Shown: positions 83-10,957, counted from the first letter of the stretch. The stretch is DNA of 64,000 nucleotides from Halieaceae bacterium (GCA_028282105.1 JANQIO010000236.1:14571-78570), one strand, 5' to 3'. Numbers and translations are program-made. Notes: a model not told the origin generated them from the letters alone.

Positions 83-1057
83 TCAGGCTGCATAGCTGTC
101 TATACCGGAGTCGTTCCCGGCCGAACTGGCCGAGGCGGTGGTTTTTTGTTTATCCCAGAGTCGCTTTGAGGCGAACCAGTCCTGCGGGTTCTGGCGAATC
201 CAGGCTTCGAAATGTTGATGCAATTGCCTCGTCAAATCCAGCGCCTGTTCGTTTTCGCTGCCATCGCTGTCCCGAGGCTTGATGGGCTCGTGGAAAATGA
301 CCCTGAAGCGGGCATCCTGCAGGCGTTCGACGTGCACCGGCACCATTTCGCAGCCCTGTTTGAGTGCCAGCTTGGCGGGCATTAGTGTCGAAAGCTTGGG
401 CTTGTCGAACAGCGGTATCGGGCTGCCCTCATCCACCCGGCGGTCCATCACGACACCCATCGAACTGCCTTTGCGCAGGGTTCGCACCATCAGGCGCGCG
501 GCCTTGTCGCGAGGCAAGAGTTCGCAGCCCAGGGCACGCCGGCTGCCCGCCAGCATCGCATCCAGGAAGGGGTTGGTGGGGGGTGAATACAGGCAGGCAT
601 TGGGTATGTCGAGACGCGCCATGGCGGAGCCTATGACCTCCCAGTTGCTAAGGTGTGCGGTGACCATCACGCAGGGCCGCGTCAGGTCGGGCGCGCGCAC
701 AATAACCTCGAGCCGATCTGCCTCGCCCTGAATCGTGGCGAGGTGGGGGTATTCCGCCAATACCCGGCCTGCCGCGCCCCAGGCTTCGACAGTTAGCCGG
801 TCAAGGCTTTCGTCGTCCAGTTCCGGGAAAGCGGTGGCAAAATTCTCTCGGTAAATCGCTGACTTTCGCTTCATACGCGGGCCGATCCAGCGCCCGACCC
901 GGCACCCCAGCCGCGAGGCAAAATCCACTGGCAGCAAGGTAAACAGCTTCACCAGCACCCACACCAGGGCAAAATCCACGCGCCACAGGGCGCGCTGCAG
1001 GCGTGGGTGCCGGCGCGCGACCTTGCGCAGGGGGCTGCCGATGATGAATTCAGCCAT
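83..1057 (-). CDS. LpxL/HtrB-family late acyltransferase-like protein (lipid A biosynthesis acyltransferase fold)
   Basis: 324-aa ORF. N-terminal hydrophobic anchor (VDFALVWVLVKLFTLLP), HX4E-type acyltransferase motif HLSNWE, and overall layout of LpxL/HtrB/LpxM enzymes. The acceptor lipid cannot be determined from sequence. Confidence 0.72.
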   Translation of the reverse strand: MAEFIIGSPLRKVARRHPRLQRALWRVDFALVWVLVKLFTLLPVDFASRLGCRVGRWIGPRMKRKSAIYRENFATAFPELDDESLDRLTVEAWGAAGRVLAEYPHLATIQGEADRLEVIVRAPDLTRPCVMVTAHLSNWEVIGSAMARLDIPNACLYSPPTNPFLDAMLAGSRRALGCELLPRDKAARLMVRTLRKGSSMGVVMDRRVDEGSPIPLFDKPKLSTLMPAKLALKQGCEMVPVHVERLQDARFRVIFHEPIKPRDSDGSENEQALDLTRQLHQHFEAWIRQNPQDWFASKRLWDKQKTTASASSAGNDSGIDSYAA

Positions 1058-1144
1058 TTACTCTAGAAAACTGGAAAAAAATCAAGCGCTTATTATAGCG
1101 AAAGCGCATCGCTAGCGGGCCTGGAATTTCGTGTCCTTTTCACA

Positions 1145-2068
1145 TCACGGCGGCGATTCTTGCAGGCTTGAGAGACCATCGTGCAGGCCGATACGCGGCG
1201 CCCAGCCGATGTGTTCGGTAATGGCGAGGTTGTCGGTCACCCAGTTGTCGAAGCGAAGTTCCCGCAGCTTGGGCGGGCTCAGCATTACCGCACTGCCAGT
1301 CAGCCGTCCGAGGCCGAGGCTGGCGGCGGCCACCGCGTTGAGCACACCGGTGGGGATGGGCCATAGCCGCACCCTGCGGCCGTAGACGGCACCGGCAATG
1401 GTGGCCATCTCCTGCCAGTCATAGCCACCACTTTTGCCATCCCCCAGCTCAAACACCTGGCCGGCGGCGGCCGGGCTGAGCAGGCAGGCCTCGATGGCGC
1501 GCACCAGGTCGTCTACATGCAGCAGGGAGGTGCGCGCCTCCACCTGGCCGGGCACCAGTGCGATTCCGCGCGCCATCCAGTCGAAGATGGCCCGCATCTC
1601 CTCGTCACCGGGGCCGTAGATAGCCGGCGGCCTCAATACAACCCAGTCCAGCGCGCTGGCCTTGGCGCGGTCTTCTCCGGCGCGTTTACTGGCGGCATAC
1701 CAGGACAGCTGCGGTTCCCTGGCCGCCAGCGAAGATATCTGCAGGAAGCGGGCACCGGGCGCAACGCGTGTGGCTGCCTCTACCACTGCCGCCGTACCCA
1801 GGTCATTGGCGGCCATGAATTCCGCTGCACTGTTGCCGCGCACCACACCGGCGAGATGCACGACGGCATCGGCGTCTTGCAGGAGCGCATCGAGTGTGTG
1901 CGGGGATTGCAGAGATCCCGCTACGGTTGCCACGGGTTCCGGGAGTTGGGCGGCCTTCTGCTGGCTGCGTACCAGAGCGCGCAGCTTCCAGCCCTGCGTG
2001 AGCAGGTAGGCGCTGAGACGTTTTCCTATGAAGCCTGTCGCGCCGGTCAGCGCGACCAGTTTGCCCAC
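1145..2068 (-). CDS. NAD(P)-dependent epimerase/dehydratase-family SDR; candidate 3-keto reductase (CerR-like) by context
   Basis: 307 aa with N-terminal Rossmann loop LTGATGFIGKRL. Lies 8 nt downstream of the acyl-AMP ligase gene on the same strand. The reductase role is inferred from neighbours only. Confidence 0.7.
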   Translation of the reverse strand: MGKLVALTGATGFIGKRLSAYLLTQGWKLRALVRSQQKAAQLPEPVATVAGSLQSPHTLDALLQDADAVVHLAGVVRGNSAAEFMAANDLGTAAVVEAATRVAPGARFLQISSLAAREPQLSWYAASKRAGEDRAKASALDWVVLRPPAIYGPGDEEMRAIFDWMARGIALVPGQVEARTSLLHVDDLVRAIEACLLSPAAAGQVFELGDGKSGGYDWQEMATIAGAVYGRRVRLWPIPTGVLNAVAAASLGLGRLTGSAVMLSPPKLRELRFDNWVTDNLAITEHIGWAPRIGLHDGLSSLQESPP

Positions 2069-2076
2069 GGCGCGGC

Positions 2077-9468: not shown

Positions 9469-10670
9469 CAAGCTGCCTGGTCGGGGTTTATCAGGCCATT
9501 GTCCAGCAGCGCGGCATAGGCACTGATGATGGTATCGATCTGTTCCGTGGAGTGGGCGGCGCTGACACTGTTGCGCAGCAGGAAGTTGGTTGACGGTGTG
9601 GCCGGTGGGACCACCATGTTCACGTAAACACCGGAATTGATTAGGGCGCGCCAGCACTCAATCGTCTGGGCGCGATCCGCCAACTGCACAGCGACCACCG
9701 GGCTGGCGACGGGGCCCAACTGCAGGCCCAGGCCGGCCAGGCCAGCGTACAGGCGCGCGGCGTTGTCCCACAGTTTGTCGCGCAGTTCAGGCTCGGCGCG
9801 AACAATCCGCAGGGCTTCGCGTGTCGACGCCACCACCGACGGGGTGGAAGAGGCGGTAAAAATGTAGGCGCGGATACAGAAGCGGATAGCCTCCATCTCC
9901 GGGTGCCGGCTGGTGCAGAAGCCGCCAATGCCGCCGAGACTCTTGCTGAAGGTGCCGGCAAAGAAATCCACGTCGTCCTCGATACCGGCTGCCTGGGCAG
10001 CGCCGCGACCTGTCTCTCCCATCACGCCCATGGAGTGGGCCTCGTCGATCATGAGGTAACCGCCGTACTCGCGCTTGATCGCGGCGATCTCCCTGAGCGG
10101 GGCTACATCGCCCAGCATGCTGTAGATGCCTTCGGCAATAATCAGCGTGTTGCCGGTGCGCTCGCCGAGTCGGCGCAGACGCTTTTCGAGGTTGTCCGGG
10201 TCGCTGTGCTTGAAACGAATCACCTCGGCGCCGGACAGCTTCACGCCGGAGTAGATACTGGAATGGCTGTCCGCATCGAGCAGGATGACGTCGCCGGGCC
10301 CCGCCAGTGTGGCCGTCATGCCCATGGTGGCGGCATAGCCCGTGCTGAAACAAATGGCGTGGGGCACGCCGTAGAAATCTGCCATTTCGGCCTCCAGCGC
10401 CTCGTGCTCAGCGAAGGAGCCGTTGGCGAGGCGTGACCCGGTGGTGCCGGTACCCCACTTGTCCAGGGCGGCGTGGGCGGCGTCGATGCAGCGCTGGTCG
10501 TAGGAGAGACCCAGGTAGTTGTTGGTGCCGGCGAGAATGACCTGTTTGCCTTCCACCATGCCCTCGGTGGCCGAGAGAATCTGTTCGGTTACCGCGCCAA
10601 ACGGTTTAACGTTTTTGCTGGCCAGCTCCGCCTGGAAGTCGGCCATCTCCTGGAATTTGTCAAACAGCAT
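9468..10670 (-). CDS. spt: Alpha-oxoamine synthase (PLP-dependent), serine palmitoyltransferase-like
   Basis: 400 aa with PLP-lysine block GTFSKSLGG. Blocks [64 protein letters not shown] and [13 protein letters not shown] match my recollection of Sphingomonas SPT along the full length. A dedicated ACP gene lies immediately upstream. BioF/Kbl cannot be excluded without phylogeny. Confidence 0.75.
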
Positions 10671-10714
10671 CTGTCACACCCTGTCGTGTTTGCTGGGGCG
10701 CCTGCCGGTCGCGA

Positions 10715-10957
10715 TCAGGGATTCAGGTCCCTGACTTTCTGGGCCAGTTCACCGATGGTGTTGACGTCGGGGAGGATGTTGAGGGGAATGGAGATGTCGA
10801 AGTGGTCTTCGATCTTCTCGATGAATTCCATCACTTCCAGTGAGCTGAGGCCGATGTCCGCCACGAGGTCGGTGGTCTCGGTCAGCTCAACGTTTTTTTT
10901 GTTGAGTGACGCGAGTGCGCCGTACATGAATTCAAGGTATTCGCGGTAGTCGGCCAT
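10715..10957 (-). CDS. Dedicated acyl carrier protein
   Basis: 80 aa, acidic. Phosphopantetheine attachment context DIGLSSLEVMEF. Sits 44 nt upstream of the spt-like gene. Confidence 0.85.
   Translation of the reverse strand: MADYREYLEFMYGALASLNKKNVELTETTDLVADIGLSSLEVMEFIEKIEDHFDISIPLNILPDVNTIGELAQKVRDLNP

Follow-up and report, generated by a model that had tools for sequence, protein, structure and literature searches.

Predicted genes for a Caulobacter-type bacterial ceramide pathway, and a surrounding glycosyltransferase, sulfotransferase and export module, in the chromosome of a marine Halieaceae bacterium

A 64,000-nucleotide stretch of chromosome from a Halieaceae bacterium (GCA_028282105.1, JANQIO010000236.1:14571-78570; hereafter the window, from whose first letter all coordinates are counted), a marine gammaproteobacterium of the OM60/NOR5 clade, carries at positions 83-10957 five genes of the families that make ceramide in Caulobacter crescentus: a serine palmitoyltransferase (Spt), a dedicated acyl carrier protein (ACP), an acyl-ACP synthetase of the fatty acyl-AMP ligase (FAAL) type, a GNAT-type bacterial ceramide synthase (bCerS) and an NDUFA9-like reductase (CerR). 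The ceramide and ceramide-phosphoglycerate (CPG) cluster of C. crescentus, CC_1152-CC_1168, is said to have been worked out by Olea-Ozuna in 2021 and 2024 and by Stankeviciute and Zik in 2022. The initial annotation of the window had matched the five genes to this set family for family, and the open reading frame (ORF) listing places each of them at the coordinates and on the strand proposed and in the family named; its choice of 83-10957 as the unit was too narrow, the functional unit being about three times longer and its gene set filling approximately 35 kb between zapE and rplM. In a close relative (L002), the positions just outside what is here the left edge of the window are taken by a fatty-acid hydroxylase gene (PF04116) and a second LpxL-like gene, followed further left by zapE, zapG and degQ-type genes; at the right end, a phosphopantetheinyl transferase gene (33967-34677) is followed by rplM-rpsI-petA. 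GC content is even across the window, with no sign of a recent island; the ORFs are all intact, and their third-position GC is high, like that of the host; and the genes are kept at 72-87% identity, in the same order, across many Halieaceae, including the cultured Halioglobus japonicus. The sequence clusters to which the window's proteins belong have members named as Halieaceae metagenome-assembled genomes.

The gene at 9468-10670 (minus strand) encodes an alpha-oxoamine synthase of 400 aa (PF00155, E 1e-51) that had been proposed to be of the Spt type. Consistent with this, it scores 593.6 bits against NF047599, the NCBIfam equivalog hidden Markov model for Spt (cutoff 500), and stays under the cutoffs of the models for the alternatives: BioF (324 bits, cutoff 426), Kbl (299.5 bits, cutoff 460), ALAS (221 bits, cutoff 339) and CqsA-type synthases (201 bits, cutoff 428). 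Of the two NCBI Spt models, it fits 'BetaP' better than 'AlphaP'. Its best matches among PDB sequences are the Spt enzymes of Sphingomonas wittichii (2X8U; 403 bits) and Sphingomonas paucimobilis (396 bits), with Sphingobacterium Spt at 277 bits, Kbl at 208, cysteate acyltransferase at 191, BioF at 178, ALAS at 171 and CqsA at 121. The block GTFSKSLGG, singled out earlier as the site of the pyridoxal phosphate (PLP) lysine, does align with Lys265 of S. paucimobilis Spt, and the equivalents of His159, Asp231, His234, Lys265 and Arg390 of that enzyme are all kept. The comparisons support the assignment of the synthase as a serine palmitoyltransferase, set apart from BioF, Kbl, ALAS and CqsA.

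Directly upstream of spt, at a distance of 44 nt and in the position of AcpR (PMC9386255), lies the gene of the proposed dedicated carrier, an AcpR-like ACP of 80 aa (10715-10957, minus strand; PF00550, E 7e-11) that scores under all housekeeping-ACP equivalog cutoffs. The candidate acyl-ACP synthetase is an AasR-like protein of 589 aa (2077-3846, minus strand) that reaches 791 bits against the subfamily model NF006624 'fatty acyl-AMP ligase' (cutoff 600), as expected from its first assignment, and is 53% identical to the corresponding cluster gene of Azorhizophilus paspali. Priming of the ACP may possibly fall to the Sfp/AcpT-type 4'-phosphopantetheinyl transferase encoded at 33967-34677 (plus strand; PF01648 and PF22624), which matches the AcpT model at E 2e-22, under its cutoff; its gene is the last before rplM and occupies the same place beside rplM in the relative L084.

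The acyltransferase and reductase assignments, which the initial annotation had offered from context, were checked by proxy. The cluster of A. paspali (L058) reproduces, in gene order and Pfam content, the published map of Azotobacter vinelandii (PMC11324152, S2E table): spt-acp-SDR-FAAL is divergent from genes for a GNAT, a MobA-like protein, a PF00483 protein, LptF, LptG, a PF01066 protein, a DAGK-type kinase and a Tam41-like protein, the last five families of the run, from PF00483 to Tam41-like, being confirmed by Pfam. Its bCerS-position gene stands in the place of Avin_44290, the published orthologue of CC_1154, and its CerR-position gene in that of Avin_44260, the orthologue of CC_1164. 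The candidate bCerS of the window, a tandem-GNAT N-acyltransferase of 380 aa with a weak direct Pfam match (5214-6356, plus strand), is 53% identical to the A. paspali protein at the bCerS position, 50% identical to a Phenylobacterium (Caulobacteraceae) protein and 55% identical to one of Thiogranum longum. The candidate ceramide or 3-keto reductase, a CerR-like extended SDR of 307 aa (1145-2068, minus strand; PF01370 and PF13460) whose nearest solved structures are epimerase-fold proteins of the NDUFA9/NUEM type, has 43% identity over 297 aa with the protein at the CerR position in A. paspali. Both similarities are full-length, and both are unique in reverse searches: the A. paspali and Phenylobacterium bCerS proxies match only 5214-6356 in the window, and the A. 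paspali CerR-position protein matches only 1145-2068. A specific relationship to bCerS and CerR, beyond context, is thus supported by sequence comparison.

Homologues of the GNAT protein are uniformly about 380 aa long and fall into 1089 clusters at 50% identity (E<=1e-30), the ten nearest cluster representatives being metagenome-assembled genomes (MAGs) of Deltaproteobacteria or Kiloniellales; among the matches listed, homologues 73-87% identical occur in many Halieaceae, including H. japonicus. An AlphaFold (AF2) model (pLDDT 74.6) has a tandem-GNAT fold; its matches, at E 4e-16, are amine N-acyltransferases of that fold, among them glucosamine N-acetyltransferase and mycothiol synthase. A search of the PDB with the GNAT sequence returned no bCerS, the best match having an E value of 0.22.

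The recurrence of the gene set was examined by scanning representative genomes with an alignment of 15 GNAT sequences, taking the best 80 loci (Caulobacter is not among them) and comparing all window proteins with these loci by tblastn. Co-location was counted in the 44 loci from other genomes that have full 10-kb flanks, a homologue being scored if it lay within 10 kb of the GNAT gene. Spt is present in 28 of the 44 loci, and all four other core genes in 20 of them; the ACP is found in 26, the SDR in 23 and the FAAL in 21. Genes beyond the core recur as well: the MobA-like gene in 37, LptF in 30, the phosphoesterase and the Tam41-like gene in 22 each, the ABC exporter in 21, and the kinase and ELM1 in 16 each. 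One Halieaceae MAG (L012) has a GNAT homologue (56-57% identity) with no other cluster genes within 10 kb, so that not every member of the family has the cluster arrangement.

Analysis of these genes suggests that 83-10957 very probably encodes a bacterial ceramide pathway of the Caulobacter type, which would proceed by charging of the dedicated ACP of 80 aa with a long-chain fatty acid by the fatty acyl-AMP ligase, the ACP being primed by a phosphopantetheinyl transferase (possibly that at 33967-34677); condensation of the acyl-ACP with L-serine to 3-ketosphinganine by Spt; N-acylation of 3-ketosphinganine by the tandem-GNAT bCerS homologue; and reduction of the 3-keto group by the NDUFA9-like SDR, the CerR homologue, to dihydroceramide.

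Four further genes have counterparts among the Caulobacter genes for the CPG head group. Adjoining the bCerS-like gene, a MobA/CofC-like nucleotidyltransferase (6366-7184, plus strand; PF12804), counterpart of CC_1153, is 46.6% identical to the A. paspali protein at that position. A calcineurin-type metallophosphoesterase (7265-8194, minus strand; PF00149) is orthologous to CC_1158 at the family level only, and its relatives in the loci surveyed, 32-60% identical, are mostly encoded directly downstream of spt. A Tam41-like protein (27395-28321, minus strand), recognised as a counterpart of CC_1161 (CpgC) by its homology to A. paspali, shares 44.6% identity over 289 aa with the protein at the CC_1161 position there and 54% with a Thiogranum protein; the A. 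paspali protein passes the PF09139 model (27.8 bits, cutoff 24), and the window protein itself reaches only E 0.016. A DAGK-type lipid kinase (28318-29283, minus strand; PF00781, E 9e-12) corresponds to the ceramide kinase CC_1160 and shows 31% identity with the A. paspali CC_1160-position protein and 40% with a Thiogranum protein.

The locus also encodes candidate export functions. An ABC exporter with fused membrane and ATPase domains (12069-13823, minus strand; PF00664 and PF00005) fails the MsbA model TIGR02203 (250 bits, cutoff 602), is 62% identical to a Thiogranum cluster protein and has relatives 44-77% identical in the bCerS loci surveyed, which makes it a candidate sphingolipid flippase and, by the curated cutoff, not MsbA. 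Next to it lie genes for an LptG-family permease (13912-14982, minus strand; TIGR04408, 265 bits, cutoff 240), which is 41% identical to the Thiogranum cluster LptG, and an LptF-family permease (14979-16100, minus strand; TIGR04407, 273.5 bits, cutoff 230). The A. paspali cluster LptF and LptG also pass TIGR04407 and TIGR04408, and this LptF is 28.7% identical to that of Pseudomonas aeruginosa, a fellow member of the Pseudomonadaceae; since a paralogous pair passes as well, the NCBIfam cutoffs cannot separate housekeeping from cluster-associated LptF/LptG. Compared with the Thiogranum cluster LptF, the LptF of the window shows 45% identity (303 bits), against 31.7% (117 bits) with that of P. 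aeruginosa, a difference that favours a cluster-associated lineage for the window pair over the housekeeping one. In A. paspali (L058 230-5313), the ABC exporter gene is followed by genes for an HlyD-type adaptor and a TolC-type outer-membrane protein, an order that suggests a tripartite export route and that is not in the published cluster maps.

Sulfotransferases and putative glycosyltransferases occupy much of the remainder. Four predicted sulfotransferases are of the 3'-phosphoadenosine 5'-phosphosulfate (PAPS) type (PF00685): the first (16402-17334, plus strand; 80.6 bits) is approximately 70% identical to Porticoccaceae cluster proteins; the second and third, encoded in tandem (19147-20130 and 20127-21065, plus strand; 84 and 89 bits), are 51% identical to one another and 46-59% identical to Roseovarius and Kiloniellales cluster proteins; and the fourth (31346-32290, plus strand; 82.8 bits) is 54% identical to Thiogranum Sulf_2. 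Three ELM1-like proteins (PF06258), putatively glycosyltransferase-like, are encoded on the plus strand at 10965-12086 (E 2e-60), with relatives 45-52% identical beside ACP/Spt in Porticoccaceae, Roseovarius and Thiogranum; at 17336-18469 (E 1e-49; start codon uncertain), 45% identical to Thiogranum ELM1_1; and at 24324-25388 (E 1e-52), 50% identical to Thiogranum ELM1_2 and 56-58% identical to Roseovarius proteins.

Three paralogues have no Pfam match: one at 23383-24285 (minus strand), 58% identical to the protein of 25363-26340; that protein itself (minus strand), whose true start is probably 26307, judged from homologues; and one at 32292-33212 (plus strand), 55-58% identical to the other two. 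A search with the protein of 25363-26340 returned 5576 homologues, of which the best 120 have no Pfam domain and bear source names that are all 'hypothetical' or 'uncharacterized'. Members from Halieaceae, Porticoccus, Thiohalobacter and Thiogranum, which represent several gammaproteobacterial orders, share 72-89% identity; the family is more conserved than Spt, and its DPD motif is invariant. The AF2 model of the same protein (pLDDT 82, pTM 0.83) has as its top Foldseek matches GT8 enzymes throughout (GlyE, LgtC, glycogenin and LARGE1; E down to 6e-8), which points to GT8-like glycosyltransferases, of the retaining type. Together, the ELM1-like, sulfotransferase and GT8-like copies suggest repeated modules that add a sugar and then a sulfate, the role of the ELM1-like proteins being putative. 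Further members are a GT2-family glycosyltransferase (26409-27440, minus strand; PF00535, E 2e-19); an O-antigen-ligase-like (Wzy_C) membrane protein (30059-31186, minus strand; PF04932, 35.2 bits, cutoff 31.7), which shares 35% identity with the Wzy_C protein of the Thiogranum cluster and has several hydrophobic segments predicted from hydropathy; and two 2-oxoglutarate (2OG)-Fe(II) oxygenases of the PF13640 family, a possible lipid or sugar hydroxylase (18466-19155, minus strand) 54% identical to a Roseovarius autotrophicus cluster protein and a second protein (33245-33961, plus strand; E 1e-4) with 37-43% identical homologues in other Halieaceae loci.

The sulfotransferase/ELM1/GT8-like module occurs together with bCerS and Spt in Roseovarius, Kiloniellales, Porticoccaceae and the cultured T. 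longum, in which the order is FAAL, GNAT, NTP, phosphoesterase, kinase, Tam41-like, ELM1, two sulfotransferases, two GT8-like, GT4, Wzy_C, ELM1, LptF, LptG, ABC, ELM1 and ACP. The extended locus is thus carried by Halieaceae, Porticoccaceae, Thiogranum, Roseovarius and Kiloniellales.

Two further genes belong to families of cell-envelope synthesis. Between spt and the phosphoesterase gene lies murA (8218-9468, minus strand), encoding a UDP-GlcNAc enolpyruvyl transferase (TIGR01072, 574 bits, cutoff 392.7) that scores 534 bits over its full length against the top PDB MurA entries (6CN1 and 5BQ2) and keeps the cysteine motif. The murA start codon (ATG) shares bases with the stop codon of spt (TGATG), which places murA inside an acp-spt-murA-phosphoesterase operon; murA occupies this position in Halieaceae loci only, and elsewhere the phosphoesterase gene directly follows spt. 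It is probably a housekeeping gene embedded in the spt operon, to judge from its sequence. A role for it as a specialised head-group enolpyruvyl transferase was considered and rejected as the first choice: the protein passes the MurA equivalog, keeps the catalytic cysteine and is not in non-Halieaceae clusters. At the left edge of the window, an LpxL/HtrB-family acyltransferase (83-1057, minus strand; PF03279, E 3e-39) falls under every NCBIfam equivalog cutoff and is not a canonical LpxL; homologues with 35-41% identity occur in bCerS/Spt clusters of Roseovarius and Salinisphaera, and the protein is a candidate for adding an extra acyl chain to a sphingolipid or to lipid A.

A 171-aa ORF between the FAAL and GNAT genes (4463-4978) has a faint DUF1579 match (E 0.023) and is probably unrelated to the pathway, because it occurs in the closest relative (88% identity) and not in other Halieaceae loci. 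In mid-cluster (21373-23374) lie genes for a DksA/TraR-type zinc-finger protein, a MOSC-domain protein and an FAD-dependent (DAO) oxidoreductase, and between the kinase and Wzy_C-like genes there is a putative gene of 291 aa on the minus strand (29280-30155) with no Pfam match. Two ORFs proposed by a filter on third-position GC, 29448-29930 (plus strand) and 31709-32188 (minus strand), are spurious, the real genes being those of the Wzy_C-like protein and the fourth sulfotransferase. To the right of the cluster, a single ORF of 675 aa (36536-38563) contains cytochrome b and cytochrome c1 domains, petB and petC being apparently fused; a 674-aa gene with the same two domains is called in L084. 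The stretch 45000-62300 resembles, by ORF order and size, a dcw (cell-division and cell-wall) cluster, an ordinary chromosomal context, and is followed by an M23 peptidase gene (62658-63584).

Taken with the ceramide core, the head-group, decoration and export genes lead us to propose, tentatively and at a little short of an even chance, that the wider locus turns ceramide into an anionic, decorated outer-membrane lipid. The DAGK-type kinase would make ceramide-1-phosphate; the Tam41-like protein, the CofC/MobA-like protein and the phosphoesterase, by analogy with CC_1161, CC_1153 and CC_1158 in Caulobacter CPG synthesis, would build a phospho-acid head group; the GT8-like, ELM1-like and GT2 proteins, the O-antigen-ligase-like protein and the four sulfotransferases would add and sulfate sugars; and the non-MsbA ABC exporter would flip the product, which the LptF/LptG pair would extract. 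In its fullest form, which is possible and which we advance with still more reserve, the product would be an undescribed class of lipid: a ceramide-anchored, phosphorylated, glycosylated and O-sulfated, LPS-like anionic lipid of the outer leaflet, with decoration that varies between strains, exported by a dedicated ABC flippase and a second LptF/LptG pair.

Several points weigh against this interpretation, some of them touching the core and others the wider locus. The ceramide pathway is predicted for the Halieaceae organism from its genes, and its link to Caulobacter bCerS and CerR runs through the Phenylobacterium and Azorhizophilus proxies and published tables. The equivalent of Arg378 of S. 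paucimobilis Spt is a valine in the window synthase. All 40 cluster-linked Spt orthologues examined have a hydrophobic residue here (nearly always L, V or I), the Arg390 equivalent being invariant in them, and the substitution is therefore a trait of the ACP-linked clade rather than a defect; it may be a mark of an Spt clade that uses acyl-ACP. CPG2 synthesis in Caulobacter needs both the nucleotidyltransferase CC_1152 and CC_1159, which resembles CDP-alcohol phosphatidyltransferases. Queries with the A. paspali CC_1152-like (PF00483) and CC_1159-like (PF01066) proteins found no match in the 64-kb window at E<=1e-3; copies elsewhere in the genome are possible, but with the genes of the window the CPG2 route of Caulobacter cannot operate in unaltered form. 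Relatives differ in their sulfotransferases, the corresponding, shorter stretch of L084 having none, which indicates that the decoration genes vary between strains. The GT2, DAO, MOSC and DksA-like genes have no counterpart in the other bCerS clusters examined, and the GT2 gene accordingly belongs to the cluster by position only. Finally, part of the neighbourhood may serve lipopolysaccharide (LPS), since MurA, the LpxL-like protein, Wzy_C and LptF/LptG also have classical functions in peptidoglycan or LPS synthesis.

This last point underlies the alternative that survives best, a serious one that we nevertheless consider unlikely: the ceramide core would be real, and the glycosyltransferase and sulfotransferase genes, Wzy_C, the LpxL-like gene and LptF/LptG would serve the LPS core or O-antigen and be merely co-located, leaving plain ceramide or a simple phosphoceramide as the product. 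Such a division of labour would accommodate a MurA that resembles the ordinary housekeeping enzyme, a Wzy_C protein, an LpxL-like protein and glycosyltransferase families typical of LPS, and a glyco/sulfo gene content that differs between relatives as that of O-antigen loci does. Cultured Halieaceae contain 3-hydroxy C10-C12 fatty acids, which are typical of lipid A, and their major polar lipids include a phospholipid and an aminophospholipid that are listed as 'unidentified' (PMC3679898); these polar lipids are compatible with a sulfated glycosphingolipid and with an LPS function of the module alike, and are evidence for neither. LptF and LptG pass the equivalog cutoffs for LPS export, as does the clearly paralogous cluster pair of Azorhizophilus. 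Against mere co-location, the set of ELM1, sulfotransferase, GT8-like protein, kinase, Tam41-like protein, ABC exporter and LptF/LptG also adjoins bCerS and Spt in alpha- and gammaproteobacteria that are unrelated, a recurrence not easily explained unless the genes are functionally linked.

It is highly improbable, in our estimation, that the synthase, ACP and ligase make some other amino-lipid, such as a capnine-type sulfonolipid, a CAI-1-like signal or an intermediate of a biotin or threonine pathway, on which the GNAT and SDR proteins would then act. Alpha-oxoamine synthases are indeed hard to assign by sequence alone, the locus does contain sulfur-related enzymes in its sulfotransferases, and the Arg378 equivalent differs from that of Sphingomonas Spt. 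The synthase nonetheless passes the Spt cutoff and fails those for BioF, Kbl, ALAS and CqsA, its match to cysteate acyltransferase is less than half that to Spt in bits (191 against 403), and each companion gene has its family counterpart in the ceramide set of Caulobacter. The sulfur of sulfonolipids, moreover, derives from cysteate and not from PAPS-type sulfotransferases. Least credible of all is that the cluster makes no lipid and is what is left, silent or in decay, of a horizontal transfer: Olea-Ozuna et al. proposed that the gammaproteobacterial cluster was acquired horizontally and found aasR to be a pseudogene in A. vinelandii (PMC11324152), but here the ORFs are intact with host-like high third-position GC, composition is uniform across the window, orthologues 72-87% identical are kept in order in many Halieaceae, and the translation of spt is coupled to that of murA, a gene that is likely essential.

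The proposed ceramide locus can be set beside several known systems. Besides the five core genes, it shares with the Caulobacter cluster the CC_1160 kinase, the CC_1161 Tam41-like protein, the CC_1153 counterpart beside bCerS, a phosphoesterase of the CC_1158 family and LptF/LptG. It differs in having no homologue of CC_1152 or CC_1159; counterparts of LptC2 (CC_1168), the flippase (CC_1166) and the HIT protein (CC_1157) were not noticed in the window, no search having been aimed at them. It adds to the published Caulobacter cluster the ABC exporter, the four sulfotransferases, the three ELM1-like and three GT8-like proteins, the GT2 and Wzy_C proteins, the 2OG oxygenases, the LpxL-like acyltransferase and murA.

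In Sphingomonadaceae, glycosphingolipids replace LPS in the outer membrane. The likeness of the proposed Halieaceae lipid to these is one of idea, a ceramide anchor bearing sugars in the outer leaflet, together with a homologous Spt (403 bits to that of S. wittichii); sulfated forms are, to our knowledge, not part of the described Sphingomonad pathway. The capnine pathway of Bacteroidota likewise begins with an alpha-oxoamine synthase and leads to a sulfur-containing, ceramide-like lipid, but its sulfur enters as cysteate via the synthase, whereas in the window sulfur would come late, via PAPS-type sulfotransferases. Halieaceae seem to retain hydroxy fatty acids of the lipid A type, and their predicted sphingolipid genes are clustered, in contrast to those of Sphingomonads, which are scattered over the genome (PMC11324152).

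The closest precedents are gammaproteobacterial. Contiguous sphingolipid clusters are described in A. vinelandii and Pseudomonas luteola (PMC11324152, Fig 7 and S2 tables), a type that we sampled through A. paspali (L058) and Pseudomonas sp. (L045). Like the window locus, these clusters are chromosomal, have spt-acp-cerR-aasR divergent from cerS and a CC_1153-like gene, and include an ABC exporter beside spt, LptF/LptG, a DAGK-type kinase and a Tam41-like protein, at 31-56% identity; unlike it, they keep the CC_1152-like and CC_1159-like genes and are without the sulfotransferase/GT8-like module. The order differs as well, spt-acp of the window standing apart from cerR-aasR, with murA inserted. 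Strains of E. coli B, moreover, carry spt-acpR-aasR (PMC9386255). The initial annotation had remarked that sphingolipid synthesis is not a textbook trait of gammaproteobacteria; the gene set is real, and the surprise was overstated, for with the pathway reported before in A. vinelandii, P. luteola and E. coli B its occurrence here is not new in kind. Searches of one library of papers found none linking sphingolipids with Halieaceae, OM60, Halioglobus, Roseovarius, Thiogranum or Porticoccus, and nothing relevant pairing 'bacterial sphingolipid' with sulfotransferase.

More interesting than the five-gene core is the conserved, strain-variable module of glycosyltransferase, sulfotransferase and export genes around it, which, by travelling with the core, points to sphingolipid head groups beyond those of Caulobacter and Sphingomonas. 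No sphingolipid flippase or transporter has been identified so far in Caulobacter (PMC11087976); the ABC exporter and LptF/LptG pair, both conserved, are concrete candidates for a role in sphingolipid export, and cultured carriers of the locus such as H. japonicus and T. longum could be used to study it. Halieaceae are abundant coastal bacterioplankton. If true, a ceramide pathway present throughout the family would help to name the unidentified lipids of Halieaceae and would add an abundant marine source of sphingolipids.

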